Counted from the first letter of the stretch, positions 3,355 to 57,680 are shown. The stretch: DNA of 64,000 nucleotides from Candidatus Velesiimonas alkalicola (GCA_013626165.1 NDHX01000004.1:565-64564), one strand, 5' to 3'. A program made the numbers and translations. The notes: generated from the letters alone by a model not told the origin.

Positions 3355-4707
3355 TTAGAATACGAGCGTCACACCTCCAACTAGCTGGAAGGCATCTGTT
3401 GTTGACACGCGAGCACGAGGAACACGAAATTCAGCGGCATAAACATCTCTTACATAGTCATCTGGTATAAACCATGCACCAAGAACCCTGAATGTTACAT
3501 CCTCTGTGTATGCATATCGGACAATAAGATTCACTTCCTCTCCGATTCTCTTGTTTACACCTGGGGCTGTTTCATCGGCCTGGAAATGATAAAGGCTTGC
3601 ACCTAATGTAATATTCTCTATTGGTATTATAGAACCGCCAATTTTTGCAACCTTAAGGTTGCTGTTCCCGTAGATATAGTCCACGATGGAGCCCCATGTC
3701 TGGTCCTCAAAGAATGGGTTCCATGACCCTATTTTATGGTCCCTTGGATTATTATCACCGGAGAACCATGCAAGCGCTGCGCCAAGCTTTGGCGTGTACT
3801 CACCCTCAAATGTATATTCTGCGCCAACATTGGTTGCAAATGCTCTGCGGTCAAGGTCTCTCATACCAACTCTTTCTGTTGTACCAAACTGACGTGCATA
3901 CTCACCTTTCAGAAGCCATCCGTCTGCTGGTTTTGTACTTCCACGGATACCTGCAACTGCAATATTTTCTCTGAAAAGTGGTCTTTCCAACCTGTTGTGA
4001 ACATTAAGAAGGTATCCTTCTACTTCTGCATCATATTCGTCAAATTTATAACCAACATTTACTCCATAAAGGTCTGCATCTTTACTGTCTCTTTCCGGTC
4101 TTTCGGCTAACTTTGCAAGAATAAGGTCTATCGTCCACGGCTCATATAGCAATACAGCCGTTATGGCATCAAATGCTTTTCTTGATGATACATCATCATC
4201 CACATCCACGGTTGCTGCGTCCCGATCTATTCCCCCTACTCCTACTTCGCCTCTCGGATCTGGTATTCTGTGTAGAGCCGTCTCAATCCTGTTCTGACCA
4301 AGAACAAAGCCTTCTCCAAGGACAATATTCTGGCGACCCATTTTAAGCGTTAAAGGGGAATACAGCACCTCCTTTAGTGTTACATATGCAAGGTCAAGCT
4401 CAATATCTATTGTGCGTTCTTCTACTCCTCCCCAATCTCTCCTGTTTAAGAGTCTTATTACTCCTTCAACATTGTCCGTAAGGTCCACATAAGCCCCAAC
4501 CCTTGCTGTTGACTGATACCAATTTCTACCTTCGGTAGAAACATCAACACCCGCCAGTCTATCAACACCAGGATATGGCCTTTCATATCCCCACCTTGAT
4601 ATCCCATGCACTGAGATATCGCCAGAAACTCTTATATTCTGGACTGCTGCAAACAATGGCAAACCCATTAAAAGCAGTGCCATTGCAATAAAAAACATTT
4701 TTTTCAA
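3355..4707 (-). CDS. Outer-membrane beta-barrel protein (porin-like)
   Basis: N-terminal signal peptide MKKMFFIAMALLLMGLPLFA. Alternating amphipathic beta-strand pattern. C-terminal ...GGVTLVF with terminal Phe, typical of OMPs. Confidence 0.55.
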   Translation of the reverse strand: MKKMFFIAMALLLMGLPLFAAVQNIRVSGDISVHGISRWGYERPYPGVDRLAGVDVSTEGRNWYQSTARVGAYVDLTDNVEGVIRLLNRRDWGGVEERTIDIELDLAYVTLKEVLYSPLTLKMGRQNIVLGEGFVLGQNRIETALHRIPDPRGEVGVGGIDRDAATVDVDDDVSSRKAFDAITAVLLYEPWTIDLILAKLAERPERDSKDADLYGVNVGYKFDEYDAEVEGYLLNVHNRLERPLFRENIAVAGIRGSTKPADGWLLKGEYARQFGTTERVGMRDLDRRAFATNVGAEYTFEGEYTPKLGAALAWFSGDNNPRDHKIGSWNPFFEDQTWGSIVDYIYGNSNLKVAKIGGSIIPIENITLGASLYHFQADETAPGVNKRIGEEVNLIVRYAYTEDVTFRVLGAWFIPDDYVRDVYAAEFRVPRARVSTTDAFQLVGGVTLVF

Positions 4708-5011
4708 TTTTCCTCCTTATTTTTAAAACAAGGTGCAATCCGAAAAGATTTTTTTAAGTTAAGATATGTATTTCCCTTCTCGTTTCTCACCTTGAGAATT
4801 AACATGTGCTATATAGTAATCGTTGCATTTCCGACAACCTTTGACTGTTCAAGAAATCCCTCACCTCCTTCTTGTCATAGATTAAGGATGTCTGCAACGG
4901 TTAAGCCCGAAACACAAGATAGACACAGACTATCTGAATATCTCATTATACAACATATTTCAGTTTTGTCAAGTACTTTTTTTTAATTTTTTTTTACCCT
5001 GTTAAATTGAT

Positions 5012-5098
5012 ATCAGTGCACCAGGGCACCAGGGCACCAGTGCACCAAAGCATCAGTGCACAGGGCACCAGAGCACCAGGGCACCAGAGCACCAGATA
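5012..5098. repeat. Tandem octamer repeat (GCACCAGR)x~11, longest copy of a dispersed intergenic family
   Basis: Direct reading: gcaccagg gcaccagg gcaccagt gcaccaaa gcatcagt gcacaggg caccagag ... Intergenic. Followed by GC-rich palindromic sequence to ~5240. Confidence 0.8.
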
Positions 5099-5283
5099 TG
5101 ATATGAAAGAAGGGGAGATTTTCGCCCCCTTTTATAAAGGTGGACCCTTCCCCTCCCCCCCCATTTATAAAGATGGCGGGGCGCCCATCCAAAGGATGGG
5201 TCGGGGGATTATGTTTTCCCCACCCAAAGGGCGCTTGCCTTAAACCCTTGATATCTTGACGCCTATTTTTTCCCTATTCCCTT

Positions 5284-6438
5284 CTATAAAGAAGCAAATT
5301 CTTTTATAAGACCTGTTCCTATTATTGACCTCTGTATCTGATTTGTGCCTTCGTATATCTGTGTAATCTTTGCATCCCTCATAAACTTTTCAACAGGGCA
5401 GTCCCTCATATACCCATAACCACCAAATATCTGAACTGCATCTGTTGTAACCTTCATTGCTGTATCTGAGGCAAAAAGTTTTGCCATTGCAGACTCTTTG
5501 CTTACCCTGGTATTTCCCGAATCAACCATTCTTGCCACTGAATAAACAAGAGCTCTTGCTGCTTCAACCTGTGTTGCCATATCTGCAAGCATAAACTGTA
5601 TGCCCTGAAATGATATTATTGGTTTTCCAAACTGAACCCTTTTTCTTGCATATTCAACCGCAAGGTCAAGTGCCCCTTGTGCAATACCAACAGATTGTGA
5701 TGCAACACCCGGGCGTGATATATCAAGAGTTTTCATTGCAACAACAAAACCAAGCCCCTCTTTTCCAAGAATATTTTCTTTTGGAACCTCGCAGTCAGTA
5801 AAAACAAGTTCTTTTGTTGCAGAAGCCCTTATACCTAACTTTTTTTCCTTTTTACCAAATGTAAATCCCGGTGTTCCTTTTTCAACTATAAATACACTTG
5901 CACCTCTTGCTCCTTTGTTTTTATCCGTCATTGCAATTATTATATAGGTTTCTGCTTCCCCACCGTTTGTAATCCACTGTTTTGTTCCGTTTAATATATA
6001 ATAATCCCCCTGGTTTTTTGCGGTTGTTTGAATACCTGATATATCAGAACCTGCGCTTGCCTCTGTTAGTCCGAATGCAGCTATTTTTTTACCCGATGCA
6101 AGGTCTGGAAGATACTTTTGTTTTTGAACATCATTCCCGTAAAGTATTATAGGATATGTTCCCAACGCACTTGCTGCATAACATACTGCAATACCCCCGC
6201 ATGCACAGGAAAGCTCTTCTGTGACAAGACACAGATCCAGAACCCCTCCGCCTGTTCCCCCATATTTTTCCTCTATATACACACCAAATAAGTCGCTCTC
6301 TGAAAGAACCTTCATTATCTGCCAGGGAAATTCCTCTGTTTCATCATAGTATGCAGAAACAGGCTGTATCTTTTCCTTTGCAATCTTTCTTGCAAGTTCT
6401 TTTGCCATTATCTGTTGTTCACTTAAAAAGTAGTCCAT
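5284..6438 (-). CDS. Acyl-CoA dehydrogenase (short-chain/butyryl-CoA type)
   Basis: Full-length ACAD architecture. YGGTG..., the catalytic region and IYEGTNQIQR near the C-terminus. Confidence 0.9.
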   Translation of the reverse strand: MDYFLSEQQIMAKELARKIAKEKIQPVSAYYDETEEFPWQIMKVLSESDLFGVYIEEKYGGTGGGVLDLCLVTEELSCACGGIAVCYAASALGTYPIILYGNDVQKQKYLPDLASGKKIAAFGLTEASAGSDISGIQTTAKNQGDYYILNGTKQWITNGGEAETYIIIAMTDKNKGARGASVFIVEKGTPGFTFGKKEKKLGIRASATKELVFTDCEVPKENILGKEGLGFVVAMKTLDISRPGVASQSVGIAQGALDLAVEYARKRVQFGKPIISFQGIQFMLADMATQVEAARALVYSVARMVDSGNTRVSKESAMAKLFASDTAMKVTTDAVQIFGGYGYMRDCPVEKFMRDAKITQIYEGTNQIQRSIIGTGLIKEFASL

Positions 6439-6486
6439 CTAACCTCTCGGTTGCCAGAGCACCAGGCCACCGGAACACCAGTTTGT

Positions 6487-7719
6487 TTATATTTTTCTCA
6501 ACACAATACTTGCATTGTGTCCGCCAAAACCAAAAGAGTTTGACATCGCAATTTTAACATCCCGCCTTCTTGCGGTATTGGGAACATAATCCAAATCACA
6601 GTCAGGGTCTGGATATTCATAGTTTATTGTAGGCGGGATGACGCTGTGATATATTGACAGAACAGATGCAATAAGTTCAACCCCTGCTGCTGCACCCAAA
6701 AGGTGCCCTATCATAGATTTTGTTGAACTTATTGCAACCTTTTTTGCATAATCACCAAACACTTTCTTAACTGCAATTGTTTCTATTTTGTCATTTAACT
6801 GTGTGGATGTTCCATGTGCATTGATATACACAACTTCTTCAGGTGCGAGTTTTGCATCATTCAGTGCTGATTTCATACAGCGGAAAGCACCGTCCCCCAG
6901 CGGGTCGGGTGCTGTTATGTGATATGCATCCGAGCTTGCACCGTAGCCTATAACTTCTGCATATATTTTAGCATTTCTCTTCCTGGCATTCTCAATATCC
7001 TCAAGTATGACAATACCTGCACCCTCGCCGATGAGAAATCCGTCCCTCTCTTTGTCAAAGGGTCTGGATGCTTTTTCAGGTTGGTCATTTTTTGTGGTAA
7101 GCGCTTTAAGGGCACAGAATCCTGCAACACCCAATTGTGTGATGCAGGATTCTGTGCCTCCAGCAACCATAACTCTGGCATCTCCATACCGGATTGTGCG
7201 AAATGCCTGTCCAATGCTATGATTCCCGGATGCACAGGCACTGGCACAGCAAAAATTAGGGCCCTTTAGTCCATAATAGATGGATATCAAACCGGATGCC
7301 ATATCAGGAATCAACATTGGGATAAAAAAAGGAGTAACCTTTGAAGGTCCTTTTTCTATAAGAACGCGCATCTGCTCTTCCATAATAGGAAGCCCGCCTA
7401 TTCCTGAACCGACGAGCACACCAATAGTGTTTTTATCTTCTTTTTCCAAATCAAGACCTGCATCCTGAATTGCCATTTTTGAAGCGCATATAGCAAACTG
7501 TATAAATCTTTCCATTCTTTTTAATTCTTTAGGGTTTATACAGCCTGATGGATCAAAGCTCTTTACCTCTGATGCAATCTTTGTCGGAAAATTTGTCGGA
7601 TCAAAAAATGTTATAGGTCCTGCCCCGCTTTTCCCGTTTATAATAGAATCCCAGAATGCGGTTGTATTGTTCCCGACCGGAGATATAACACCCAAACCTG
7701 TAATAACAACTCTATTCAC
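6487..7719 (-). CDS. fabF: 3-oxoacyl-[ACP] synthase II
   Basis: MNRVVITGLGVISPVGN start; active-site ..ACASG..; HGTSTQLND and GHLLGAAG motifs. Sits directly downstream of acpP. Confidence 0.9.
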   Translation of the reverse strand: MNRVVITGLGVISPVGNNTTAFWDSIINGKSGAGPITFFDPTNFPTKIASEVKSFDPSGCINPKELKRMERFIQFAICASKMAIQDAGLDLEKEDKNTIGVLVGSGIGGLPIMEEQMRVLIEKGPSKVTPFFIPMLIPDMASGLISIYYGLKGPNFCCASACASGNHSIGQAFRTIRYGDARVMVAGGTESCITQLGVAGFCALKALTTKNDQPEKASRPFDKERDGFLIGEGAGIVILEDIENARKRNAKIYAEVIGYGASSDAYHITAPDPLGDGAFRCMKSALNDAKLAPEEVVYINAHGTSTQLNDKIETIAVKKVFGDYAKKVAISSTKSMIGHLLGAAAGVELIASVLSIYHSVIPPTINYEYPDPDCDLDYVPNTARRRDVKIAMSNSFGFGGHNASIVLRKI

Positions 7720-9254: not shown

Positions 9255-9290
9255 ACCCACTATCTACTACCTACTACCTACTATCTTTTC
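9255..9290. repeat. TAGGTAGTAG-type tandem repeat (reverse orientation) immediately after the fabH stop
   Basis: Plus strand ctactacctactacctactatc, i.e. GATAGTAGGTAGTAGGTAGTAG on the transcribed strand. Confidence 0.7.
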
Positions 9291-11729: not shown

Positions 11730-11918
11730 TTAAAAATATCTGTTTTTTCGCCTTGCCTCTCTTGCGTCTTTTGCCTTCCTTTTCTTTCTCTCGCTTGGCT
11801 TCTCATAATATCTCTTTATCCTTACCTGTCTGAGAAGCCCTTCTCTTTCTACTTTTTTCTTTAACTTTCTCAGGGCCCTTTCAAGGCTTCCTTCTTTTCC
11901 TACATCAACCCTTGACAC
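11730..11918 (-). CDS. rpsU: 30S ribosomal protein S21
   Basis: Basic C-terminus RKKRKAKDAREARRKNRYF. ERALRKLKKKVEREGLL matches S21. GTG start 8 nt after an AAGGAGG RBS. Confidence 0.8.
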   Translation of the reverse strand: MSRVDVGKEGSLERALRKLKKKVEREGLLRQVRIKRYYEKPSERKKRKAKDAREARRKNRYF

Positions 11919-11937: not shown

Positions 11938-11990
11938 CGTTCACCAGAGCACCATTCACCCACTACCTGTCACCAGAGTCACCAGTTCTA
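11938..11990. repeat. GCACCAG-type octamer repeats in the rpsU 5' leader
   Basis: caccagagcaccattcacccactacctgtcaccagagtcaccag. On the transcribed (minus) strand it reads CUGGUG... immediately upstream of the RBS. Confidence 0.7.
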
Positions 11991-14219: not shown

Positions 14220-14465
14220 TGATCTTAATCCCACACCCAAGAGGGTACCCGAGGCACCAAACAATATTCAATAACCAAATTACAATAACCAAACAATATT
14301 CAATTTTCAAATCTTAAATTACAAACTTTGGAATTGAGGATTTTGGGATTTCGGGCACCCTCTGGGTGTGTCATTCGTTTAGTACTAAAATTTTGTTGCA
14401 AAAATTATAAATAAATGTAAGATATCATAATAGATAGGTTTTGATATTTCTTTAAAAGAGGGGTT

Positions 14466-16786: not shown

Positions 16787-18475
16787 ATGAATAACAGAAT
16801 TAAATATTTTGGTTTAGGAATATTTCTTTTTCTTTTTACTCTTATTATTATTCTATGGCATATCCAGGTTTTAAAAAATGAAAAGTATCTATTGCTATCT
16901 GAGAAGAACAGGATAAGGCTTGTTCCGATTGTAGCCCCGAGAGGAAATATACTTGACAGAAACGGTGTGGTTTTAGCCTTTGACAAACATTTTTTTGAAC
17001 TTGTTGCAGTGCCTCAAGATCTGTCAAAGAACAGGGAAGAATTAAAAGAACTGGCAAAAATTTGTGGCGTGGATGTAGAATATTTTCATAAAAAGATAAA
17101 AGAAAGATTTGTTGCACCGTTTTATCCCGTTGTTCTTTTAAGAGATGTTGAATTATCAAAAGTAATAAAGATTGAAGAACAAAATATAAGATTTCCAGGC
17201 ATAAGAGTAAGAGAGGTTTTCAGAAGGTATTATCCACAGGCTGAAACCTTTGCACACATTATCGGATATACAGCAAGGCCCACCTTGCTTGAGATTCTAA
17301 CTACTGAAGAATTTATAACAGATGAGGATTGGATAGGAAGAAGTGGTTTGGAAAAAACAATGGATGATGTTTTAAGAGGGAAAAACGGAGGAACGCAGGT
17401 TGAGATTGATAACAGAGGAAGAATGATAAGAACACTCAGTTGGAAAGGACCTGAACCCGGAACAGATATAAGACTAACAGTAGATGCGGGGTTGCAAGAG
17501 TTTGGGAAAAACCTGCTTGCTGGCAGAAAGGGTTCAATAGTTGTTCTTGATTGTTCCAGCGCAAGTATTCTTGCAATGGTAAGCAGTCCGTCTTATAATC
17601 CGAATTATTTTGTATCATCCGATAATCGTGTTACAGAAATATTAAATGATAGAAGATCCATAATGTTAAACAGGAGTTTATTGCCTTATCCGCCCGGTTC
17701 AATATTTAAAATTATAACAGCAATAAGCGGACTTGATAAAGAAATTATAAGTCCGTCCCAAACATTTCAATGTAGCGGAAGTATAGATATCGGGAATCAC
17801 AGAGTTCATTGTTTTGGCGCAAGAGCACATGGCAATGTAAATCTTCATAAAGGAATAACAGATTCTTGCAACACATATTTTGTAAATATCGGAAAAATGA
17901 TAGGTGTAGATAATATATCAACATATGCAAGGATATTTAACTTAGGAAGCCCTACTGGTATAGAGCTTCCATTTGAAAAAGGTGGACTTGTCCCCGATAG
18001 AATCTGGAAGAAAAAGAAAATCAACGAAGACTGGTATACAGGAGATACCGCAAACATTAGTATCGGCCAGGGGTATGTTCTTACAACTCCACTACAGATG
18101 GCAAATATGGCTCTTCTTGTTGCAAACAATGGGATATCTTTTAAACCACGCCTGATAAAAACAGAAACCAATCAGAATAAAAAAGTATCTATATTAAGCC
18201 CGGAAGTTTTCTTACCCTTAAAAGGCGCTATGGAAGATGTTGTCCGAAGAGGGACTGGAAGACTTGCAGGGGGCGATGGGATTTCTGTTGCAGGTAAAAC
18301 AGGAAGCGCACAGGTTGATAATAACAGATCACATGCATGGTTTATAGGTTATGCCCCCGTAAAAAATCCGCAGATTGCATTTGCAGTGTTTCTTGAATTT
18401 GGAGGGCGTGGCGGAGAAGAGCCTGCAATAATTGCAAAAAAAATTGTCCAGTATTGGATGGAGAATAGTAGATAG
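16787..18475 (+). CDS. mrdA: Penicillin-binding protein 2 (peptidoglycan D,D-transpeptidase)
   Basis: N-terminal TM segment and PBP dimerisation domain. Transpeptidase motifs SIFK (SxxK), SCN (SxN) and KTGS (KTG). Start set at the MNNRIKYF that immediately follows the mreD stop. Confidence 0.85.
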   Translation: MNNRIKYFGLGIFLFLFTLIIILWHIQVLKNEKYLLLSEKNRIRLVPIVAPRGNILDRNGVVLAFDKHFFELVAVPQDLSKNREELKELAKICGVDVEYFHKKIKERFVAPFYPVVLLRDVELSKVIKIEEQNIRFPGIRVREVFRRYYPQAETFAHIIGYTARPTLLEILTTEEFITDEDWIGRSGLEKTMDDVLRGKNGGTQVEIDNRGRMIRTLSWKGPEPGTDIRLTVDAGLQEFGKNLLAGRKGSIVVLDCSSASILAMVSSPSYNPNYFVSSDNRVTEILNDRRSIMLNRSLLPYPPGSIFKIITAISGLDKEIISPSQTFQCSGSIDIGNHRVHCFGARAHGNVNLHKGITDSCNTYFVNIGKMIGVDNISTYARIFNLGSPTGIELPFEKGGLVPDRIWKKKKINEDWYTGDTANISIGQGYVLTTPLQMANMALLVANNGISFKPRLIKTETNQNKKVSILSPEVFLPLKGAMEDVVRRGTGRLAGGDGISVAGKTGSAQVDNNRSHAWFIGYAPVKNPQIAFAVFLEFGGRGGEEPAIIAKKIVQYWMENSR

Positions 18476-18510
18476 TAGGTAGGAGATAGTAGGTAGTAGG
18501 TAGGGAAAAC
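18466..18510. repeat. TAGGTAGTAG-type tandem repeat immediately after the mrdA stop
   Basis: tagtagatagtaggtaggagatagtaggtagtaggtaggg. Provides stop codons in two of three frames straight after the PBP2 stop. Followed by a GC-rich palindrome (18511–18535). Confidence 0.7.
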
Positions 18511-18642
18511 CCCCCTCCTTTTATAAAGGAGGGTAGGGGTGGATTATCCTTTCAGTTTTGTGATTCGGGTACTCTTTGTGTGTGTTTCTTTTGCGGCATG
18601 CGAAGTTCGGGCGAGGTCTATGATATACAGGATACGGAATAT

Positions 18643-23691: not shown

Positions 23692-23895
23692 ATGAAAAAG
23701 AACAAAGCACCTGAAATATTGACTACTAAACAACTGGCTGAATATCTACAAATGGATAAAGCAACTGTCTATCGCCTCGCAAGAAAAAGAAAAATCCCTG
23801 CCATCAAAATCTTGGGTCAGTGGCGGTTTAAAAAAGATGTAATTGATAATTGGCTTGCTGAAGGAAGTTTAAAAAATTTTGATAAAATGGAGTGA
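23692..23895 (+). CDS. Excisionase/MerR-type helix-turn-helix DNA-binding protein
   Basis: 67 aa. LTTKQLAEYLQMDKATVYRLARKRKIPAIKILGQWRF is the HTH_17 / excisionase-family signature. Its stop overlaps the mod start. Confidence 0.7.
   Translation: MKKNKAPEILTTKQLAEYLQMDKATVYRLARKRKIPAIKILGQWRFKKDVIDNWLAEGSLKNFDKME
23698..23823. repeat. Left copy of a ~125-bp inverted repeat (5' part of the HTH gene)
   Basis: Near-identical, apart from a few mismatches, to the reverse complement of 29100–29225. Confidence 0.85.
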
Positions 23896-25822
23896 AAAGA
23901 TGAGTGAAAAAATTAATAAGTCGGTGAAGATAGATATTAAGGAAGGATTAAATAAAATTTATCCTGAAGTATTTGAGGATGGTAAAGTTAATTTTGAGAA
24001 GTTGAAGACATTGTTAAGTGGCGAAATCATTGAAAAGGAAGATGATAGGTTTTATTTTAACTGGGCTGGGAAAAGCAATTTATTTAAACTTATCCAAGCA
24101 CCTGCTTATGGAACTTTAAAACCAGATAAAGAGAAGTCAGTTGATTTTGATAGGACAGAAAATGTTGTAATTGTTGGTGAAAATTTAGAGACACTTAAAC
24201 TTTTGCTTAAACCATATTTTGGTAAAGTCAAGATGATTTATATTGACCCGCCTTATAACACAGGTAAAGATTTTATTTATCGTGATAATTTTAAGGAACC
24301 ATTAAAAGACTACTTAGAAAAAACAGGACAGATTGACAGTGAAGGGCAAAAACTCACTACGAATACAGAAGCAAGTGGTAGATACCATTCTGACTGGCTC
24401 AATTTTATCTATCCGAGATTATTTTTAGCAAGAAGTTTATTAAGAGATGATGGAGTTATTTTTATCTCAATTGATGACCACGAGGTTCACAACTTACGAA
24501 AAATTATTGATGAGATTTTTGGGGAGGAGAATGTAGAAATGATGATTTGGTATAAAATTCCTGAAACAGGAACAGCAGGGCAAGGGAAAATGAAAATGAC
24601 AACACGATTTAGAGTGGACAATGAATATATTTTAGTGGGATATAAAAATATAAATAAGATTCTATTTGGTAAGCCTTTAAGAATTAAGGAATTCAAAAAT
24701 GAATATGCTAATCCTGATAATGACCTTCGGGGGAATTGGATAAGTTGTGAATTATGTAAGTCTGAAGAAAAATCAAACCCTAAAGGTAAAAATTATTACA
24801 CTGTTACAACTCCAAAAGGGATAAATATAACGAGACAGTGGCATATAACAGAAGAAGAATTTAAACAATTGGATGGAGATAATAGAATATATTGGGGTGA
24901 CGGTACAATTATACCAAGATTGAAAAGATTTTTAAATGAACCACAGCCTGTAACTCCTTCTTCCTTAATTAAAAATATTTCCCAGACACAAGGTAATAGA
25001 GAATTGAAAAATTTATTCAACGGTAAATTAACATATGACAATCCCAAACCTCTTGAACTTATATCATGGTTGATTGAAATTTCTACTTCCTCAGATTCCC
25101 TCATCCTCGACTTCTTCGCCGGTTCAGGCACAACAGGACACGCTGTCTGGAACTTAAACAAAGAAGATGGAGGCAACAGAAAATTTATTCTTGTTCAACT
25201 TGATGAAGAAGTTTTAGATGAAGAAATTAAAAAACAGTTTCCAACTGTTGCAGATATCTGTATTGAAAGATTAAGGAGAGTATCAGAAAGGTATAAGAAA
25301 GAGAACACCCCGTCCCTGCGGGACACCCCTCTGAAAGAGGGGAATTCCCCTTCTATGAAGGGGTGGCAGGCGAAGCCTGACGGGGTAGTGTTTGGGTTCA
25401 AGGTCTTCAAACTTGATAAATCAAACTTCAATCTTAAAGATGAATTTGAATTTGACCCAAGTGAAAATAAAGAAGAGTTAAAAAAGAGATATTTAGAGTG
25501 GCTTGGTATGTTTGTTGAACAACCATTAGTTCCTAACTGGCAAAAGATTGATGTTATTTATGAAGTAATGCTGAAAGAAGGATTAAATCTAAACTCTAAA
25601 ATTGAAAAGATAAAGATTAAAAACGACGAATTTTATTATGTTAAGGATGAAGAACAAAACTTAGATTTTTATATCTCTCTTAAAGACAAATTTACTCCTG
25701 AGACCATAGAAGAAATAAGAACTTCAAAATATAAAGGAAAAATGTTTGTCTTTATAGACAAAGCATTAACAGATAACAACAAAATAAATTTGAGTGCTTT
25801 TGTGAGATTAAAGGTGATATAA
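23879..25822 (+). CDS. mod: Type III R-M system methyltransferase (Mod), N6-adenine
   Basis: DPPY motif IV; FAGSGTTG SAM-binding motif; ~640 aa; upstream of res. Carries a ~95-bp GC-rich palindromic in-frame segment (25305–25400). Confidence 0.85.
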   Translation: MIKWSEKMSEKINKSVKIDIKEGLNKIYPEVFEDGKVNFEKLKTLLSGEIIEKEDDRFYFNWAGKSNLFKLIQAPAYGTLKPDKEKSVDFDRTENVVIVGENLETLKLLLKPYFGKVKMIYIDPPYNTGKDFIYRDNFKEPLKDYLEKTGQIDSEGQKLTTNTEASGRYHSDWLNFIYPRLFLARSLLRDDGVIFISIDDHEVHNLRKIIDEIFGEENVEMMIWYKIPETGTAGQGKMKMTTRFRVDNEYILVGYKNINKILFGKPLRIKEFKNEYANPDNDLRGNWISCELCKSEEKSNPKGKNYYTVTTPKGINITRQWHITEEEFKQLDGDNRIYWGDGTIIPRLKRFLNEPQPVTPSSLIKNISQTQGNRELKNLFNGKLTYDNPKPLELISWLIEISTSSDSLILDFFAGSGTTGHAVWNLNKEDGGNRKFILVQLDEEVLDEEIKKQFPTVADICIERLRRVSERYKKENTPSLRDTPLKEGNSPSMKGWQAKPDGVVFGFKVFKLDKSNFNLKDEFEFDPSENKEELKKRYLEWLGMFVEQPLVPNWQKIDVIYEVMLKEGLNLNSKIEKIKIKNDEFYYVKDEEQNLDFYISLKDKFTPETIEEIRTSKYKGKMFVFIDKALTDNNKINLSAFVRLKVI

Positions 25823-25842
25823 ACAATGGAGATGATGTAGAT

Positions 25843-26133
25843 ATGAAGAATTTAGAAGAATTAAAAAGAATTATTAACCTGCATAAAAGAGAACTTGAAG
25901 AAAAATATAATGTAAAAAATATAGCCATATTTGGTTCTTATGTGAGAAACGAACAAGGTGCAGAAAGTGATATAGATATACTGGTTGAATTTAAGAAACC
26001 AGTAGGTTTACTTTTCATCCATCTTGCAGATTATCTGGAAGAAATCTTAGGCATTAAAGTTGACCTGTTAACACCCGAGGCTATAAAACCAAATCGCCGA
26101 AGATATGTAATGGAGGAATTGATCTATGTCTAA
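25843..26133 (+). CDS. Nucleotidyltransferase (MNT-type antitoxin)
   Basis: IAIFGSYVRNEQGAESDIDILVEF is the minimal NTase GS..DxD motif. Confidence 0.85.
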   Translation: MKNLEELKRIINLHKRELEEKYNVKNIAIFGSYVRNEQGAESDIDILVEFKKPVGLLFIHLADYLEEILGIKVDLLTPEAIKPNRRRYVMEELIYV

Positions 26134-26473
26134 AAGGGACTGGAAACTTTTTCTTGAAGATGTTTTGGAATCAATGGGTTTAATAGAGGGATATGTGAAA
26201 GATATGAATTTTGATAATTTCAAAAGCGACAGAAAAACAATTGACGCGGTTATCAGAAACCTTGAGATAATAGGAGAAGCCTCAAAAAATATTCCGCAAA
26301 ATATGAGAGATGCTTACAAGGATATTGATTGGAAAGGCATTATTGGCTTAAGAAATAGAATATCTCATGAGTATTTTGGTATAGATTTTTCTGTTATATG
26401 GAACATTATTAAACTTGAACTTCCTGCATTTAAAGAAAAATTTCAAAGGATACAGAAAGAAATTGAGCCATAA
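26126..26473 (+). CDS. HEPN (DUF86-type) toxin
   Basis: GLRNRISHEY carries the Rx4HxY HEPN motif. An 8-bp overlap with the upstream MNT gene gives a classic HEPN/MNT pair. Confidence 0.8.
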   Translation: MSKRDWKLFLEDVLESMGLIEGYVKDMNFDNFKSDRKTIDAVIRNLEIIGEASKNIPQNMRDAYKDIDWKGIIGLRNRISHEYFGIDFSVIWNIIKLELPAFKEKFQRIQKEIEP

Positions 26474-26474
26474 A

Positions 26475-29063
26475 ATGTTAAAGTTAAAATTTGATTCAAA
26501 ATTAGATTTCCAGATTGATGCAATAAATTCTGTTGTTGATTTATTTAAAGGTCAGAGGGAGAAGTCATTTGTTTATACATTCCAGATTATTCCTAATTTA
26601 ATAGATATACCTTCAGAAAAAATCCTTGAAAATCTACAAGAGACTCAAAAGAAAAATGGACTTCCATTATCTAACGCAGACGATTTGAAAGAACCTTATA
26701 ATTTTACTGTTGAAATGGAGACGGGAACTGGAAAGACCTATGTATATCTAAGGACAATCTTAGAATTAAATCAGAAATACGGATGGACAAAGTTCATTAT
26801 TGTAGTTCCATCGGTTGCTATAAAAGAAGGAGTTTTAAAAACTTTGGATATTACGAAAGAACATTTTAAACAGTTGTGTGAGAATTTACCTTATACCTAT
26901 TTTTCTTATAAATCGGACAATCTCGTAATGGTTCGGATGTTTGGTCAAGATACCAACCTTCAGGTTATGGTTATTACAAGAGATGCCTTTAATAAGGATA
27001 TAAATATAATCCATAATATTCACGATAAAATGGGAGATAAACCAATTGAGATTATCAAAGAGACAAAACCCATCGTTATTCTTGACGAGCCTCAAAAGAT
27101 GGGCGGAGAAGCAACTTTGTGGGGTTTATCTGAGTTGAATCCACTTTTTGTATTACGCTACTCTGCAACCCACAGAGATATTTATAATCTTGTTTATAAA
27201 TTAACTCCTTATGATGCGTATAATTTCGGATTAGTTAAAAAAATAGAAGTCCTGTCTATTACAGAAGAAGGAGACCCAAGCAGTAAAAAAATTATTTTAG
27301 AAAGAATAGAATCAACATCAAGTGGCTTAAGAGCAAAAGTCAAAGTTTTTGCTAATACAAAAGACGGTATAAAGTTTAAGATGATAACGATTAAACACGG
27401 TGATGATCTATCAAATAAGACAGATAATTCCTATTATAATGGCTTTATCACAAGTGAAATAAACAAAGGTGCAGGGTATATCTCTTTTCCTAATGGTGTG
27501 AAAATTTACGAAGGAAAATCTTCAATAGATGAAGATGAGATAATTCGTTTTATGGTAAGGGAAACGGTAAGGGAGCATTTAGACAAAAAGAAACAATTAA
27601 ATCCCAAAGGGATTAAAGTGTTAAGTCTGTTTTTTCTAAATAGAGTTGATGATTATCTATTGGAAGATGGGATTGTCCGACGAATTTTTGAAGAAGAGTT
27701 TAACAAATTTATTGAGAATCAATATTCCCCTCTTGTAGAGGGGTGTCCCGAAGGGACGGGGTGTTTTGATGTAAAGAAGGTTCATAGTGGTTATTTTTCA
27801 AAGATGAAAAGGGATAAAAGTATTGAAGAAGATGAGTCAGCATACGATTTGATTATGAAGGATAAAGAGAGATTGCTTTCGTTGGGGGAACCGGTAGAGT
27901 TTATTTTTTCCCATTCTGCTTTGAGAGAGGGCTGGGATAATCCGAATGTATTTAATATTTGCACTCTTGCTTACTCTTCTTCAGAAATTAAAAAGAGACA
28001 GGAAATCGGGAGAGGTTTAAGATTACCAGTTGACCAGAATGGGGATAGAATTCAGGATAGAGATATAAACTTATTGACTGTGATTACAAATGAAAGTTAT
28101 AGGGAATATTTAGAAAGATTACAGATAGAATACCGAGAAGAAGCAGGCGTTGAAGCACCACCTGTTGAAGAAAGAAGGCAAAGGATAAAAATAAAGCGTA
28201 AGGATGAGGTAATTCAAGGAGATTTATTTAAAAATTTATGGAATAGAGTATCTCCGAAAGCAAAGTATATTGTAAATATAGATGGTGGTAAATTCACAGC
28301 GCAATGTATCAAGGATTTACAAAAAATTGAAATAAAAAAGCCAGAAATAAGCATTAAAAAAGTTAGAGTAGATAAAATAAGCTATGAAGACATTGAAGAG
28401 GAATTTATTAGAAAAGCATCGGAAGAAACGGAGATAACCAAAGTCCTTAATCTTATACCCTGCATTGAAAGAGAAACCAGTTTAACTAAAAATACAATAT
28501 TTAAGATATTAGAAGGTTGTAATAATCTTCATCTTTTATTTGTGAATCCTCAAAAATATAAAGATATGGTCATAGAAGTTATTAAAGAGTGTAAAAAACA
28601 ATCTGAAGTTGAGGATATTAAATATATCAATTTGGAAGAAAGTTATGATGTTGGTCTTTTAAGGGAGGAAGTGGCGAGTTATGGTAAATATGTATTAAAA
28701 GTACAAAAATCAATTTATGATGGGATAATTAAAGAATCAAATATAGAAGAAGAGTTTGCTAAGGCACTTAATAAAGACTCCCGGATAAAATTATTCATAA
28801 AACTGCCTGATTGGTATTCAATAGAAACGCCTGCAGGGAATTACACACCTGACTGGGCGATTGTAATAGAAAAAGTTCAGAATGGTGTAACTTCCGAAAA
28901 AATTTACTTTGTAGTTGAAACCAAAGGAACTAATAATATTTATGAATTGAAATCCGATGAAAAAATTAAGATAAGAAGTGCTAAAAAGAGGTTTGAACTT
29001 ATAAGAGACTCAAAATTTGTGGCACCTGTTAAGGATTTTGATAGTTTTGAGAAGGAGTGGTAA
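26475..29063 (+). CDS. res: Type III restriction enzyme Res subunit (SF2 helicase-nuclease)
   Basis: ETGTGKT Walker A; VILDEPQ motif II; GWDNPNVF motif VI. ~860 aa. Start taken at MLKLKF, directly after the HEPN stop. In-frame GC-rich palindrome at 27726–27765. Confidence 0.85.
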   Translation: MLKLKFDSKLDFQIDAINSVVDLFKGQREKSFVYTFQIIPNLIDIPSEKILENLQETQKKNGLPLSNADDLKEPYNFTVEMETGTGKTYVYLRTILELNQKYGWTKFIIVVPSVAIKEGVLKTLDITKEHFKQLCENLPYTYFSYKSDNLVMVRMFGQDTNLQVMVITRDAFNKDINIIHNIHDKMGDKPIEIIKETKPIVILDEPQKMGGEATLWGLSELNPLFVLRYSATHRDIYNLVYKLTPYDAYNFGLVKKIEVLSITEEGDPSSKKIILERIESTSSGLRAKVKVFANTKDGIKFKMITIKHGDDLSNKTDNSYYNGFITSEINKGAGYISFPNGVKIYEGKSSIDEDEIIRFMVRETVREHLDKKKQLNPKGIKVLSLFFLNRVDDYLLEDGIVRRIFEEEFNKFIENQYSPLVEGCPEGTGCFDVKKVHSGYFSKMKRDKSIEEDESAYDLIMKDKERLLSLGEPVEFIFSHSALREGWDNPNVFNICTLAYSSSEIKKRQEIGRGLRLPVDQNGDRIQDRDINLLTVITNESYREYLERLQIEYREEAGVEAPPVEERRQRIKIKRKDEVIQGDLFKNLWNRVSPKAKYIVNIDGGKFTAQCIKDLQKIEIKKPEISIKKVRVDKISYEDIEEEFIRKASEETEITKVLNLIPCIERETSLTKNTIFKILEGCNNLHLLFVNPQKYKDMVIEVIKECKKQSEVEDIKYINLEESYDVGLLREEVASYGKYVLKVQKSIYDGIIKESNIEEEFAKALNKDSRIKLFIKLPDWYSIETPAGNYTPDWAIVIEKVQNGVTSEKIYFVVETKGTNNIYELKSDEKIKIRSAKKRFELIRDSKFVAPVKDFDSFEKEW

Positions 29064-29099
29064 GAGAAACTTTAAATTACCTGATTGTTATAAAAACAG

Positions 29100-29225
29100 C
29101 CACTGACCCAAGATTTTGATGGCAGGGATTTTTCTTTTTCTTGCGAGGCGATAGACAGTTGCCTCATCCATTTGTAGATATTCAGCCATTTGTTTAGTAG
29201 TCAATATTTCAGATGCTTTGTTCTT
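29100..29225. repeat. Right (inverted, degenerate) copy of the HTH-gene 5' segment
   Basis: Reverse complement matches 23698–23823 apart from a few mismatches. Lacks the ATG and diverges after ...GQW, so it is a non-functional partial copy. Confidence 0.85.
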
Positions 29226-29241
29226 TTTTTTATTTGTTGTT

Positions 29242-30201
29242 TTATTTTTCCTTCACTGTTATATATGATTGAGCCAAAAGTTCCCCTATAAATTCTGAAA
29301 ACCTGTCTTGTATTTTTTCTTTTTCTAAAGTCATTCTTATTTTGTCCTGTGCTTCTTCAAATAATATGGCATAGCCCGGACGGTGATCTTCTACTTTAAA
29401 GATATAATAATTAGAATTGATCTTGATAGGATTTGATGTCTGTTCCTGTTTAAGCGAAAAAACAATGTCTTCTATTTCTTTCAGCATCTTTCCTTTTTCA
29501 ATCCATCCCACACTTCCGCCTTCTTTTGCAAACGCATCTTTTGAATATTTTTTTGCAACCTCTGAAAAATCCTCTCCCTGCCTTAAAAGGCTTGATACTT
29601 CTTCTGCTGTTTTATTGAAAGAGTCCTCTGTCTGATTTTCTTCTTTTCTCAGTGTAATTTTTCTTAAATAAACTTCTTCATTTTTTTTAAAAAATTCCGG
29701 ATGCTGGTCATAAAAGTCTTTTATCTCTTTGGGTGTAACAATGGCTTTACCCACAACTTCTTTATCAAATATTATTCTTATTGCAGTCTGTTCTTTTAGT
29801 CTTTTTTTAAACCTTTTTTTCGTCCATCCCTGTGCTTTAAGGTTTTTCTCAAACTCTTCTGTGCCCCCTGCTTCTGATTCAAACATTTTAATCTTACCTT
29901 CAATGTGCGCATCCTGAACCTTTATATTCTGTCTTTGAGCCTCCTGATACATCATCTTTTCTTGTATAAGTTGTCTTATCACATTTTGTCTTAACTCTGC
30001 GAGCTTTTTTTCTAATTCTTCGCCCTGCACTTCCGGTTCCTGCAGGAAAAAAGGCAAGAGAGCCTCCTGTATATCGGATTCCATTATAATATCACTGTTA
30101 ACGATAGCAATTATTGCATCAAAATTACCCCGCTCAGGTGCAGCCGCACAATTCAGGCCTGCGAGCAAGATTATTTCTATCAAGAAAAGTAATTTTTTCA
30201 C
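29242..30201 (-). CDS. SurA-like periplasmic chaperone / PpiC-type peptidyl-prolyl isomerase
   Basis: Signal peptide. SurA_N-like helical region. C-terminal parvulin domain (GGSVGWIEKGKMLKEIEDIVFSL...). Confidence 0.7.
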   Translation of the reverse strand: MKKLLFLIEIILLAGLNCAAAPERGNFDAIIAIVNSDIIMESDIQEALLPFFLQEPEVQGEELEKKLAELRQNVIRQLIQEKMMYQEAQRQNIKVQDAHIEGKIKMFESEAGGTEEFEKNLKAQGWTKKRFKKRLKEQTAIRIIFDKEVVGKAIVTPKEIKDFYDQHPEFFKKNEEVYLRKITLRKEENQTEDSFNKTAEEVSSLLRQGEDFSEVAKKYSKDAFAKEGGSVGWIEKGKMLKEIEDIVFSLKQEQTSNPIKINSNYYIFKVEDHRPGYAILFEEAQDKIRMTLEKEKIQDRFSEFIGELLAQSYITVKEK

Positions 30202-32116
30202 TATCTGTTATTTCTCCTTTTTCTTTTACCTGTTCTATAGCATCTTTCAATAATCTACAGTAAAGGTCAAAGCCAACCGCACCTATATGTCCGCTTTGTT
30301 CTATCCCAAGAAGATTTCCGGCACCTCTTATCTGCAGGTCTTCCATAGCAACACGAAAACCAGAGCCGAGCTCTGTCCATTTTTCCATACAAGAAAGCCT
30401 CTCCTTCGCATCTGATGTAAGGATGCTCCTGTCCTGCACTAAAAGATAGCAGGTGGCTGGGATATCTGACCTTCCTACTCTTCCTCTTAATTGATAAAGG
30501 TCTGCAAGTCCGAACATATCTGCATTATCTATAAATATCGTATTTGCATTTGGTATGTCAAGCCCGGACTCTATGATACAGGTGCAAACAAGGACACTGA
30601 TATTTTTTTGTAAAAATTGTTTCATAACATCTTCCAGAACCCGCCCTGGCATCTGTCCGTGGGCAGATGCAATTTTTACACCCGGAACAATAGAAGAAAT
30701 TTTTTTAGCAACCCCTTCTATTGTTTCAACCCTGTTATGCACAAAAAATACCTGTCCGCCTCTTTTAATTTCTTTTAATATGCCTTCTCTTACAATGTCG
30801 CCTGAAAACCGGCAAACTGTTGTTTTTACAGGGATACGAGAAAGAGGCGGTGTATTGATAATAGACATATCCCTTACACCCGTAAGGCTCATATACAGTG
30901 TTCGTGGTATGGGTGTTGCGGTAAGCGTAAGAACATCTACAAGAAGTCTTAACCTTTTAAACCTTTCCTTATGCCTTACACCGAATCTTTGCTCCTCATC
31001 AATTATAACAAGCCCTAAATCTTTAAAACCCATATCTGATGAAAGAAGCCTGTGTGTTCCTATGACAATATCGGTTTTGCCTTCTGATGCTGCCAATACT
31101 GTTGCCTTCTGTTGATGCGGTGTCACAAACCTTGAAAGCATACTTATTTCAACAGGGAAATTCTTGAACCTCTGCTTGAATATAAGGCAATGCTGTTCTG
31201 CAAGAAGTGTTGTAGGGGTAAGTATTGCAACCTGTTTATTGCTCATCACAGCCTTAAATGCTGCGCGAAGTGCTACTTCTGTTTTACCATAACCAACATC
31301 TCCGCAGATAAGCCTGTCCATCGGCTTTTCCATTTCCATATCTTTTTTTGTTTCAAGCCACGACCTTATCTGGTCGGGCGTTTCTGTGTATGGAAACCCC
31401 GATTCAAACTCTTCCTGCCACAGACCATCTTTTGAAAATGCAAATCCTTTTTTTGAAATCCTTACTGCCTGAAGCATCACAAGTCCAGAGGCAAGAGACT
31501 GAACAGCTCTGTATGCTTTTTGTTTTGTCTTCTCCCAGAATTTTGTTCCCAATCTACTTAAGTTCGGAGCTCTTTTATCAATGCCGACATATCTTCTTAC
31601 CATTGAAATATCTTCAATTGGAACATAGAGCCTGTTTTTATCCCTGTATTCAACAACAAGATAATTCTTTAATTCTTCTTTTTCAGGACATTTAAGTTTT
31701 TTCCTCCCTAAATATTTTCCTATGCCATGCTGAAAATGGACAACAAAATCCCCCTCTTCAAAATCTGTAAATTTACTTATGTTTTCAGATTCTATGAAGG
31801 ACTTAAACTGCAAAGAACTAAGACTTTTTATCCCTGCAGGGACAATGATAACAACATTCAATTCTTCAATTATGTTGCCGTCTTTATGATTAAAAGCCGT
31901 GAGCCTTTCTATCCTGTTATCAAAAAGTTCAAACCTTACAGGATGTATTCTATCAAAGGCAAATATATCAATTATATATCCTCTGTGCGAAAAATCCCCG
32001 GGCAATTCAACACAATCTTTCCACCTATATCCTAAAATCACAAAACTGTTTAAGATATCTTCAAAATTAAATATCTGGTCCTTTTGAAATCTTAAAACTT
32101 CTGGAAACTCCGCCAT
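30134..32116 (-). CDS. mfd: Transcription-repair coupling factor Mfd, short form lacking the UvrB-homology N-terminal module and the D7 C-terminus
   Basis: CarD/TRCF RNAP-interacting domain (DFVVHFQHGIGKYLG). SF2 translocase motifs: GDVGYGKT, DEEQRFG, TATPIPRT, LRGRVGR. Only 660 aa against ~1100 aa for canonical Mfd. Confidence 0.8.
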   Translation of the reverse strand: MAEFPEVLRFQKDQIFNFEDILNSFVILGYRWKDCVELPGDFSHRGYIIDIFAFDRIHPVRFELFDNRIERLTAFNHKDGNIIEELNVVIIVPAGIKSLSSLQFKSFIESENISKFTDFEEGDFVVHFQHGIGKYLGRKKLKCPEKEELKNYLVVEYRDKNRLYVPIEDISMVRRYVGIDKRAPNLSRLGTKFWEKTKQKAYRAVQSLASGLVMLQAVRISKKGFAFSKDGLWQEEFESGFPYTETPDQIRSWLETKKDMEMEKPMDRLICGDVGYGKTEVALRAAFKAVMSNKQVAILTPTTLLAEQHCLIFKQRFKNFPVEISMLSRFVTPHQQKATVLAASEGKTDIVIGTHRLLSSDMGFKDLGLVIIDEEQRFGVRHKERFKRLRLLVDVLTLTATPIPRTLYMSLTGVRDMSIINTPPLSRIPVKTTVCRFSGDIVREGILKEIKRGGQVFFVHNRVETIEGVAKKISSIVPGVKIASAHGQMPGRVLEDVMKQFLQKNISVLVCTCIIESGLDIPNANTIFIDNADMFGLADLYQLRGRVGRSDIPATCYLLVQDRSILTSDAKERLSCMEKWTELGSGFRVAMEDLQIRGAGNLLGIEQSGHIGAVGFDLYCRLLKDAIEQVKEKGEITDSEKITFLDRNNLARRPELCGCT

Positions 32117-32149: not shown

Positions 32150-32200
32150 CCAGTCACCAGGGCACCAGAGCACCAGAGCACCAGAGCACCAGGGCACCTG
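32150..32200. repeat. GCACCAGR octamer tandem repeat
   Basis: cagtcaccagggcaccagagcaccagagcaccagagcaccagggcacc, between the mfd start and the apbE end. Confidence 0.8.
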
Positions 32201-34222: not shown

Positions 34223-34637
34223 AGTAATCTCTTTCTAATTTAATGTAGGAGCGACTCGGGGGTCGGATCTCCCAACCCAATCTTTCATAGTCTTCTTACA
34301 GAAACAGGAGATGTCATTATGAGGGCGAAGCCAGAAGTGACACTGTAATGTGTCATCTCTTCGCGGAAGTTCACCCTTGAGCAAAAGGAATGGTTCAGAA
34401 CGGCGCCTGAAAGAGCAATTACCCCTGCTTGAATCTATCAGGGGCTGAAGGAACTCATTAAAATGAATCTTTGCAGACTCTTTTAAGTAACACATATTCC
34501 CCTTCCCAGGCATCAGAGCACCAGGGCACCAGTTGCCACTTGCCCTTTTAAGTTGCTTCCCCATATTCCAAATCTTGTAATACTAAAATCATATTTTACG
34601 GGGTCATCGGCACATAATTTTATAAAGTTTTTCAAAG

Positions 34638-37697: not shown

Positions 37698-37844
37698 CTT
37701 CTTGTCTCCTTTTTCTGAATTTATTCAAACGGCTTCTTGGAAAATGTAACGATTGAAGAATTGCCCCCTGAATCTCCCATCCATTCATCATGAAAAGTGT
37801 CAATTTTCACCTACGTCCCTCAGGGCAAAAATAATTTTTACTTA

Positions 37845-37918
37845 AAACAACCGTCCCTTTTTCCGTTTTCATTTCTCAAAAAGTAGCCCGTCCCCTTTTC
37901 TATACCATTTTCCTTTTC
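37845..37918. repeat. Copy of the hicBA-associated upstream repeat, orphan (no TA pair downstream)
   Basis: aaccgtccctttttccgttttcatttctcaaaaagtagcccgtccccttttctata matches the repeats at 38440–38580 and 39150–39270. Confidence 0.75.
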
Positions 37919-38439: not shown

Positions 38440-38580
38440 AGTCGCTTAAAGAGAACGGGTGTATTTATTATTCCCATTTTCTTGTTTGCATCTTTTTCAT
38501 TTAATTAGAACCGTCCCCTTTTCCGTTTTCATTTCTCAAAAAGTAGCCTGTCCCCTTTTCTATATGGAATGTCTTGTTTG
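38440..38580. repeat. ~110-bp conserved repeat upstream of hicB (copy 1), with internal 12-mer direct repeats
   Basis: tatttattattcccattttcttgtttgcatctttttcatttaattagaaccgtccccttttccgttttcatttctcaaaaagtagcctgtccccttttcta. On the minus strand AAAAGGGGACRG occurs twice ~35 bp apart. Confidence 0.8.
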
Positions 38581-39149: not shown

Positions 39150-39270
39150 TAATGGACGATTCTATTTATTATTCACATTTTCTTGTTTGAATCATTTTCA
39201 TTTAATTAGAACCGTCCCCTTTTCCGTTTTCATTTCTCAAAAAGTAGCCTGTCCCCTTTTCTACTTTTCT
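39150..39270. repeat. ~110-bp conserved repeat upstream of hicB (copy 2)
   Basis: Near-identical to 38440–38580 (…cacattttcttgtttgaatcattttcatttaattagaaccgtccccttttccgttttcatttctcaaaaagtagcctgtccccttttcta). Confidence 0.8.
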
Positions 39271-54539: not shown

Positions 54540-54580
54540 GTTAACAGAGCACCAGGCACCAGAGCACCAGGCACCAGATA
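54540..54580. repeat. GCACCAGR octamer tandem repeat
   Basis: cagagcaccaggcaccagagcaccaggcaccag, between the galK start and the upstream gene end. Confidence 0.8.
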
Positions 54581-57624: not shown

Positions 57625-57680
57625 AGGCGACTGAGCGACAGGCGACTGGTGCACTGGTGCACTGGTGCTCTGGTGCTCTA
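57625..57680. repeat. GCACCAG-family octamer repeat in reverse orientation (CTGGTGCW)
   Basis: gcgactggtgcactggtgcactggtgctctggtgctct, between short nfeD and floA on a plus-strand operon. Confidence 0.8.

Follow-up and report, generated by a model that had tools for sequence, protein, structure and literature searches.

Tandem CTGGTGCY octamer arrays form a slippage-prone intergenic repeat family oriented with the neighbouring genes in a 64-kb window of a probable Omnitrophota bacterium

The short tandemly repeated repetitive (STRR) sequences of cyanobacteria are heptamers, and to our knowledge neither polarity with respect to transcription nor wobble self-pairing of one RNA strand belongs to their defining features. 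The REP/BIME elements of enterobacteria are dispersed at operon junctions and 3′ ends and may form stem-loops in the mRNA, and the Rickettsia palindromic elements insert in frame into genes. The closest described case to the repeats reported here is that of the TAACTGA heptamers of marine Beggiatoaceae, in which 147 of the 170 sets are oriented to the start codon and whose function is unknown (MacGregor 2015, PMC4679880). These sets end within a few nucleotides of the start codon, mostly without a ribosome-binding site (RBS) (PMC4679880). Repeats with units of 5–11 nt, termed 'long simple sequence repeats', were surveyed by Mrazek et al. 2007, as cited in PMC4679880. The literature yielded nothing specific on the octamer unit described below or on repeats of Omnitrophota.

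The window analysed here, a 64-kb stretch of DNA whose sequence is also present in two metagenome assemblies (BBPE01013375 and BBPF01001226), contains eight arrays of the octamer YCTGGTGC/GCACCAGR. All of them are intergenic, and CTGGTGCY is the gene-sense form of the unit. Seven of these sites had been listed by a first-pass annotation as tandem GCACCAGR octamers and are confirmed, and an eighth (1423–1438) is added. The host is probably a Candidatus Omnitrophota bacterium, judging from the best named homologues of its FloA and AlaS proteins. The unit, which falls in the 5–11 nt range, is repeated head to tail over lengths greater than expected by chance, and it turns up at numerous distinct loci, most of them non-coding (8 intergenic loci in 64 kb), whereas the genes of the window contain single isolated units only. 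Tandem Repeats Finder reports arrays at 5014–5095 (period 8, 10.4 copies, 82% matches), 32155–32198, 34509–34532, 54545–54578, and 57645–57676. In addition, the 16-mer GCACCAGRGCACCAGR has 19 matches in the window with up to two mismatches, against 0.01 expected and a count reached by no shuffle, and the 7-mer GCACCAG occurs 25 times where 3.5 occurrences would be expected. The genes around the arrays are ordinary and mostly housekeeping, comprising fabF, lipA, rpsU, mfd, mdh, galK, nfeD, and floA, together with genes for an acyl-CoA dehydrogenase, an ApbE-like protein, a peptide-binding protein, and a Pal-like lipoprotein. A search of Rfam 15 gave no family match at gathering score anywhere in the window.

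The octamer arrays are a case with a new unit within the class of STRR sequences and 5–11 nt long simple sequence repeats. As in other members of this class, tandem units of 7–8 nt are common to many non-coding loci and restricted to a lineage, several unit families occur per genome, and array length varies by slippage; the differences from STRR lie in the host, a probable Omnitrophota bacterium, and in the polarity and wobble self-pairing documented here. The arrays resemble the Beggiatoaceae TAACTGA sets in occupying many intergenic sites of one genome with short tandem units, in their scattered phylogenetic distribution, and in the functions of the downstream genes, which follow no pattern and include ribosomal protein genes. 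The two systems also share a strong start-codon polarity, seen in 7/7 arrays of the window yet broken in a sister genome and in the genome CAZVBB01 (both described below). They differ in the unit, here the 8-mer CTGGTGCY of other sequence, and in the end point, the window arrays stopping 20–45 nt before the start codon with a canonical RBS following. Moreover, related genomes carry the octamer in hairpin-forming inverted pairs, whereas the Beggiatoaceae genome has one inverted set among 170 (PMC4679880). The palindromic octamer form of the relatives also occurs in frame within genes, like the Rickettsia palindromic elements; unlike these and REP/BIME, its arms are built from tandem octamers of variable number, and the window holds single arms only. 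Slippage-prone repeats and strain-variable copy number are shared with phase-variable contingency loci, but the arrays lie outside ORFs and promoter spacers, have mostly housekeeping neighbours, and place one unit at many loci. A contingency locus was rejected as a description of the focal array as well, which is located upstream of a −35 box.

The focal array (5012–5098, minus strand) is composed of about ten CTGGTGCY octamers in the gene-sense reading with a degenerate centre, the plus strand showing GCACCAG(G/A/T) units. Its neighbours are the acyl-CoA dehydrogenase gene (5284–6438) and an alginate-export-like porin gene (3355–4707). On its sense-upstream side, a terminator-like hairpin (5110–5131, minus strand) is found 3′ of the acyl-CoA dehydrogenase gene. 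On the other side, a sigma-70-type promoter for the porin-like gene is located at 4945–4972 on the minus strand, with TTGACA and TATAAT separated by 16 nt (12/12 positions). The array is situated ~40–125 nt upstream of the −35 box, with an A/T-rich tract in between. Placed between hairpin and promoter, it therefore probably lies outside any mRNA leader, and the earlier statement that every copy sits on the local mRNA goes beyond the data and is doubtful at this junction. An intrinsic terminator, consisting of a G+C-rich hairpin and a T run, was rejected as an identity for the repeats: no terminator-like match overlaps any array, and the nearest one is the separate hairpin at 5131–5110.

The remaining arrays occupy spacers of various lengths. 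The two-unit array at 1423–1438 (CTGGTGCTCTGGCGC, plus strand) is located in a divergent spacer, where it reads CTGGTGC toward the plus-strand gene at 1525–2499, and its orientation is ambiguous. The array at 6444–6480 (minus strand) takes up most of the 48-nt spacer between fabF and the acyl-CoA dehydrogenase gene and ends just before a GAGAGG RBS. That at 11938–11990 (minus strand), which includes CTGGTGA and CTGGTGC units, ends 20 nt before the GTG start codon of rpsU (11730–11918, minus strand). The first-pass annotation had placed an array directly upstream of the RBS of this gene, and rpsU is indeed genuine, encoding ribosomal protein S21 (PF01165 Ribosomal_S21, Pfam E=4.8e-16). Five to six units are found at 32150–32200 (minus strand) in the 95-nt spacer between the apbE-like gene and mfd, and four units of mixed 7- and 8-base length at 54540–54580 (minus strand) in the 60-nt spacer between the pal-like gene and galK. 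The array at 57625–57680 (plus strand) lies in the 82-nt nfeD/floA spacer, where GGCGACNG-type units precede it and AGGAGG and ATG follow. The tandem arrays are real, but the picture of uniform GCACCAGR units does not hold throughout: 6444–6480 and 11938–11990 have degenerate units, among them CTGGTGT, CCGGTGG, and CTGGTGA, besides the mixed unit length at 54540–54580 and the degenerate centre of the focal array.

Five arrays (6444, 11938, 32150, 54540, and 57625) are operon-internal, sitting in short gaps between genes of the same direction; all of them stop 20–45 nt before the start codon, and each has a canonical RBS (GGAGG, AGGAG, or GAGAGG) downstream. These and the other stop and start distances were taken from direct reading of the sequence, automated distance output being noisy. 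A scan of the junctions at 32150, 54540, and 57625 gave no promoter-like or terminator-like sites. The three-unit array at 34508–34545 (minus strand) is located in the 415 nt that separate mdh from the peptide-binding-protein gene, 105 nt past the upstream stop codon and ~290 nt short of the next start, and it overlaps an unsupported 109-aa ORF. Next to the array at 32150, mfd appears as two overlapping minus-strand ORFs (30134–32116 and 29242–30201) with most of the usual N-terminal region absent; the split gene (29242–32116) may represent a frameshift, a pseudogene, or a short form.

According to the ORF map, the gene-sense strand reads CTGGTGC in all seven arrays between same-direction genes (two-sided binomial p ~0.016). 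This agrees with the annotated CUGGUGCY reading relative to the local genes, the eighth, divergent site being ambiguous. The hexamer CTGGTG occurs 27 times on the sense strand and never on the antisense strand in the same-direction spacers of the window, whereas inside genes it occurs four times in each orientation. Gene blocks and GC skew change strand at ~1.4, 12.7, 29, and 55.6 kb, and the array polarity flips with these blocks, none of which is long enough to be a replication arm. Polarity therefore goes with transcription and not with replication, and a replication-strand explanation is ruled out. The same flips led us to reject a Chi site, with which only the CTGGTG core is common (6/8 positions of E. 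coli Chi). The sense strand of the spacers has a GC skew of +0.12 and an AT skew of +0.13 (A over T), while on that strand the unit is rich in T and lacks A, so base composition alone does not predict the polarity. A resemblance to sigma-54 promoters was dismissed by reasoning, the GG-to-GC spacing being off by one.

The two strands differ in predicted RNA folding. The sense strand folds more stably than the antisense strand in 4/4 arrays tested, with a gap of ~6.5 to 11.3 kcal/mol. The focal array (5012–5098) reaches −39.9 kcal/mol in sense and −28.7 kcal/mol in antisense (sense z −3.98), and the corresponding values are −20.1 and −8.8 kcal/mol for 32150–32200 (sense z −1.55) and −13.1 and −3.5 kcal/mol for 54540–54580 (sense z −2.66). 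The gap is smallest, 6.5 kcal/mol, for 57625–57680 (−25.2 and −18.7 kcal/mol; sense z −2.08, antisense z −2.83). An idealised (CUGGUGCC)6 RNA folds to −23.2 kcal/mol in stacked 6-bp helices, whereas its complement reaches −3.0 kcal/mol. The sense strand folds better because GGUGCC pairs with GGUGCC via two G·U wobbles. The window arrays are direct repeats predicted to fold as RNA through G·U pairs only, and do not appear to be true DNA palindromes. This predicted asymmetry lends moderate support to an RNA-level reading and is the sole direct support for it, with the caveat that any G+U-rich strand outfolds its own complement and that some z-scores are modest (−1.55 at 32150). Masking or unmasking of the RBS was rejected, the predicted accessibility from −15 to +5 not differing consistently among native, flipped, and shuffled arrays. 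A two-tier G-quadruplex with one GG per unit was likewise set aside by reasoning, as the ViennaRNA energy formula disfavours two layers with 6-nt loops.

Related genomes show the octamer in further arrangements. In the sister genome (JGI 3300045482; FloA 85% and AlaS 63% identical), a divergent spacer carries a GCACCAG array and, 153 nt on, a CTGGTGC array, nested with other inverted repeats, and the hisD–hisB spacer holds a four-unit array whose sense strand reads GCACCAG. The latter directly contradicts a strict orientation rule. Nearly all copies in JACQEW01 are inverted pairs, laid out as stop codon, 1–12 nt, (GCACCAGR)n, an AT-rich loop, (YCTGGTGC)n, 6–12 nt, and start codon. CAZVBB01 contains single arrays in both orientations. 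There, arrays on the stop side only read GCACCAG and those on the start side only read CTGGTGC, while very short spacers show either reading. Both orientations are found directly upstream of RBSs in this genome, sense-GCACCAG arrays of 3–4 units among them. Arrays are also found in frame in genuine genes, encoding a CbiA/ferredoxin NTPase, a GltD-like oxidoreductase, an aconitase-family protein, LptF/G, and a radical SAM protein. These genic arrays encode (APEHQSTR)n-like linkers, and the copy in the aconitase-family gene (contig L021) is palindromic. The strict rule proposed by the first-pass annotation consequently fails beyond the window, given the sister-genome array, the two orientations of CAZVBB01, the inverted pairs of JACQEW01, and the in-frame genic arrays.

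Over all relatives' loci, the GCACCAG arm precedes the CTGGTGC arm in 13/13 inverted pairs. The JACQEW01 copies have AT-rich loops in common, and the loop of L015 is the exact reverse complement of that of L050, which marks them as homologous copies of a single palindromic element. The 13 pairs are therefore not independent, and their 13:0 order could come from common descent of this element. Orthologous junctions do not keep their arrays: the nfeD–floA junction of L125, the nearest relative, has no array, and its nfeD-upstream spacer has two. The density of arrays with a period of 7–8 nt is 2.3 per 100 kb in control FloA loci, as against 9.4 for the window and 52 for L125. FloA-anchored control loci, mostly from unrelated bacteria and totalling 897 kb, contain no octamer array, against eight in the 64-kb window. 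A universal cross-phylum motif was rejected: a scan of species-representative genomes matched many phyla, but in viral contigs the eight stretches of GCACCAG ×3 compare with counts of 1, 8, and 5 for octamers scrambled at constant composition. Since scrambled units are about as common as the real one, the broad matches are generic and only genomes with multiple matches are informative.

The arrays undergo slippage. In contig L121, which shares 99.6% identity with the window, the array upstream of galK (54540–54580) counts six units, compared with four in the window and in L123. This difference of exactly two units corresponds to a single 15-nt gap in that alignment, and because so close a strain differs in this way at one array, slippage is active at the arrays. 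The polarity had earlier been taken to argue against slippage, an argument that the whole-unit length polymorphism between close strains removes. The strain comparison of copy number proposed at that stage has in this way yielded a difference.

Several further repeats and mobile-looking features were observed. A second family, the heptamer AGGTAGT, is found on the sense strand of a same-direction spacer at 9255–9283 (minus strand), and an AGGTAGT/ATAGTAG array occupies 18465–18503 (plus strand, again sense), followed by a CCCC...TTTATAAA...GGGG palindrome. This heptamer family also occurs in the sister genome (L231, 3572–3609) and lies on the sense strand in 3/3 places. The G/C-run palindromes CCCC..TTTATAAA..GGGG are located near arrays at 5140–5200 and 18500–18540 in the window and at 7480–7500 and 11560–11980 in L125, and may constitute a second dispersed element. 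Whole intergenic regions of relatives (L125 7380–7683, L231 11960–12060, L065, and L091) are nested palindromes of differing 7–8 nt tandem units, for example TTTAGAG/CTCTAAA, GGACTATG, and CAGGATGC. In unrelated, apparently gut, bacteria, TAACTAA/AATAACT heptamer arrays resembling the Beggiatoaceae TAACTGA repeats lie immediately upstream of floA (L158 1451–1478, L159 5769–5796, L168 1768–1795, L163 9922–9966, and L172 3108–3152).

Within the window, three direct copies of ~108 nt (37795–37902, 38455–38562, and 39156–39263; 67–94% identical to the reference copy and 660–700 nt apart) bracket two small two-ORF cassettes resembling toxin–antitoxin pairs, in a layout like that of a cassette array. 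A 135-nt inverted duplicate of 96% identity (23695–23829 and 29094–29228), with an apparent helix-turn-helix, excisionase-like peptide, flanks a 5-kb block of four plus-strand genes (23879–29063) that could represent a mobile or invertible island. At 45561–48698, the minus strand encodes a Type ISP restriction-modification enzyme of 1045 aa (Pfam Type_ISP_C, N6_Mtase, and Eco57I), and over its first ~160 nt the gene matches a contig (L114) of the unrelated genome CAZVBB01 at 91% identity. In addition, a long-range inverted repeat, CACACCCAAGAGGGTACCCGAGG ... CGGGCACCCTCTGGGTGTG (14220–14465, 246-nt spacer), encloses A/T-rich short direct repeats.

Several explanations compete for these observations. 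As the main rival, the arrays might be a neutral or selfish microsatellite without a role, arising and varying by slippage in any untranslated spacer that can accommodate them, with the 7/7 polarity resulting from chance, shared descent, or a transcription-associated G+T mutational bias on the sense strand. The strain-variable unit number, the lack of conservation at orthologous junctions, the in-frame insertions within housekeeping genes of other genomes, the sister-genome counter-example, and the two orientations in CAZVBB01 all agree with such a microsatellite, as do a unit that is not unusually common by the viral-contig count (8 vs 1, 8, and 5 for scrambled octamers) and a sense strand with generally more G than C (spacer GC skew +0.12). 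We nevertheless consider it somewhat unlikely, as 27:0 hexamers and 7/7 loci are improbable by chance (p ~0.016 by locus), a T-rich, A-free unit in A-over-T spacers (AT skew +0.13) is not what composition predicts, one unit rather than many random ones is found at eight sites, and the stop-side/start-side polarity is seen again in several genomes. Alternatively, the arrays might be half-copies or remnants of a mobile palindromic element of the form [GCACCAGR]n-loop-[YCTGGTGC]n, REP-like or similar to the Rickettsia palindromic elements, of which one arm survives here. Thirteen palindromic copies in relatives, the reverse-complementary L015 and L050 loops, which indicate homologous JACQEW01 copies inserted both ways, and the in-frame, Rickettsia-like copy in the aconitase-family gene of L021 point in this direction. 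Such an origin appears fairly improbable for the window, where no array has a partner arm or common non-repeat flanks, and neither a transposase nor a RAYT is seen in the 64 kb plus short strain contigs; loss of the same arm 7–8 times would require selection anyway.

A sequence-specific RNA binding array would treat CUGGUGCY as the site of a multimeric protein (S1, cold-shock, or CsrA-like) or as a weak, Shine-Dalgarno-like GGUG 'standby' site that brings in 30S subunits ahead of the true RBS, GGUG being complementary to CACC in the 3′ tail of 16S rRNA. Evenly spaced sense-strand tandem units 20–45 nt before the starts at five sites fit this arrangement. So does the TAACTGA precedent, with 147/170 sets facing the start codon and a similar role proposed (PMC4679880). 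Nevertheless, several unrelated units show equal polarity in these spacers, relatives carry the opposite strand directly before the RBS, the arrays are predicted to be folded rather than single-stranded, the focal and 34508 arrays are distant from any start codon, and the analysis brought up no candidate protein; we judge such binding distinctly improbable. A role at the DNA level, as phase-variable contingency loci, upstream promoter elements, or Chi-like recombination or restriction-related sites, seems highly improbable. It would draw on the position of the focal array just upstream of a consensus promoter for an outer-membrane porin-like gene, on the strain-to-strain variation in unit number, on CTGGTG being the core of E. 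coli Chi (GCTGGTGG), and on the Type ISP restriction enzyme gene in the window. These points are opposed by a unit matching Chi at 6/8 positions only, by mostly housekeeping neighbours, by polarity with transcription and not with replication direction, and by the lack of any window array between −35 and −10 boxes or inside an ORF. Moreover, a head-to-head pair exists (54549 on the plus strand and 57646 on the minus strand), so inverted sites are not avoided.

We favour, at a probability of roughly 0.4, a lineage-specific, slippage-prone simple-sequence repeat family that provides structured junction spacers and owes its uniform polarity to RNA-level selection. Unit number would shift by slipped-strand mispairing. 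When transcribed, the G/U-rich (CUGGUGCY)n would fold on itself through GGUGCC/GGUGCC pairing, while the complementary (GCACCAGR)n would generally fold less well. The full form in relatives places a C-rich arm 1–12 nt past the stop codon and a G/U-rich arm 6–12 nt before the start codon, and the paired arms would give a junction hairpin of 25–40 bp. The window arrays would represent the start-side, G/U-rich half of this junction element, able to fold alone and acting as structured spacers in polycistronic mRNA that may affect transcript stability, processing, or the coupling of neighbouring cistrons. Long C-rich untranslated RNA with little structure is of the kind that loads the termination factor Rho. 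A reversed array would introduce a long, less structured, C-rich untranslated RNA of the Rho-loading type within operons, and transcription of the G/U-rich arm first would allow it to fold on itself and hinder formation of the long stem; uniform polarity could be maintained by RNA-level selection of this kind. Other unit families in these spacers (AGGTAGT, GGACTAT, and TAGACGG) also have their G-rich strand on the sense side, and since several unrelated units share sense polarity, a generic physical constraint is favoured over one sequence-specific binding protein. In this scheme we infer that the arrays are transcribed and folded in cells, that selection and not descent or chance sets their polarity, and that expression is affected.

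Some observations count against this preferred reading. The focal array follows a terminator-like hairpin and precedes a promoter, the polarity concerns seven sites only (p ~0.016), and sense-GCACCAG arrays are present both in the sister genome and, before the RBS, in CAZVBB01. In addition, the lack of conservation at orthologous junctions and the in-frame genic copies fit a selfish or neutral element. The function at the RNA or transcription level suggested by the first-pass annotation is thus upheld insofar as the polarity follows the genes and the two strands fold unequally, and weakened insofar as units slip, exceptions to the rule exist in the wider family, and the focal array itself probably lies outside an mRNA leader.

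A broader form of the junction-spacer reading, which we regard as a long shot, would be a two-part polar junction system across the Omnitrophota-related lineage, with C-rich (GCACCAGR)n after stops and G/U-rich (YCUGGUGC)n before starts. Paired arms, or the G/U arm alone, would form hairpins that survive the gain and loss of units and couple the translation, processing, or stability of cistrons, and unit slippage would amount to a heritable, genome-wide tuning of operon-internal expression ratios. New in the present case are the candidate-phylum host, the clear polarity with respect to transcription, and a physical reason for it in the stronger predicted RNA self-pairing of one strand, to which the related genomes contribute the stop-side/start-side hairpin form. 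Should the polarity not be genome-wide, the arrays would be ordinary microsatellites that also break metagenome assemblies. If it is genome-wide, the family would offer a tractable model for how repeats are tolerated or used in operons and whether slippage can tune the expression of neighbouring genes.
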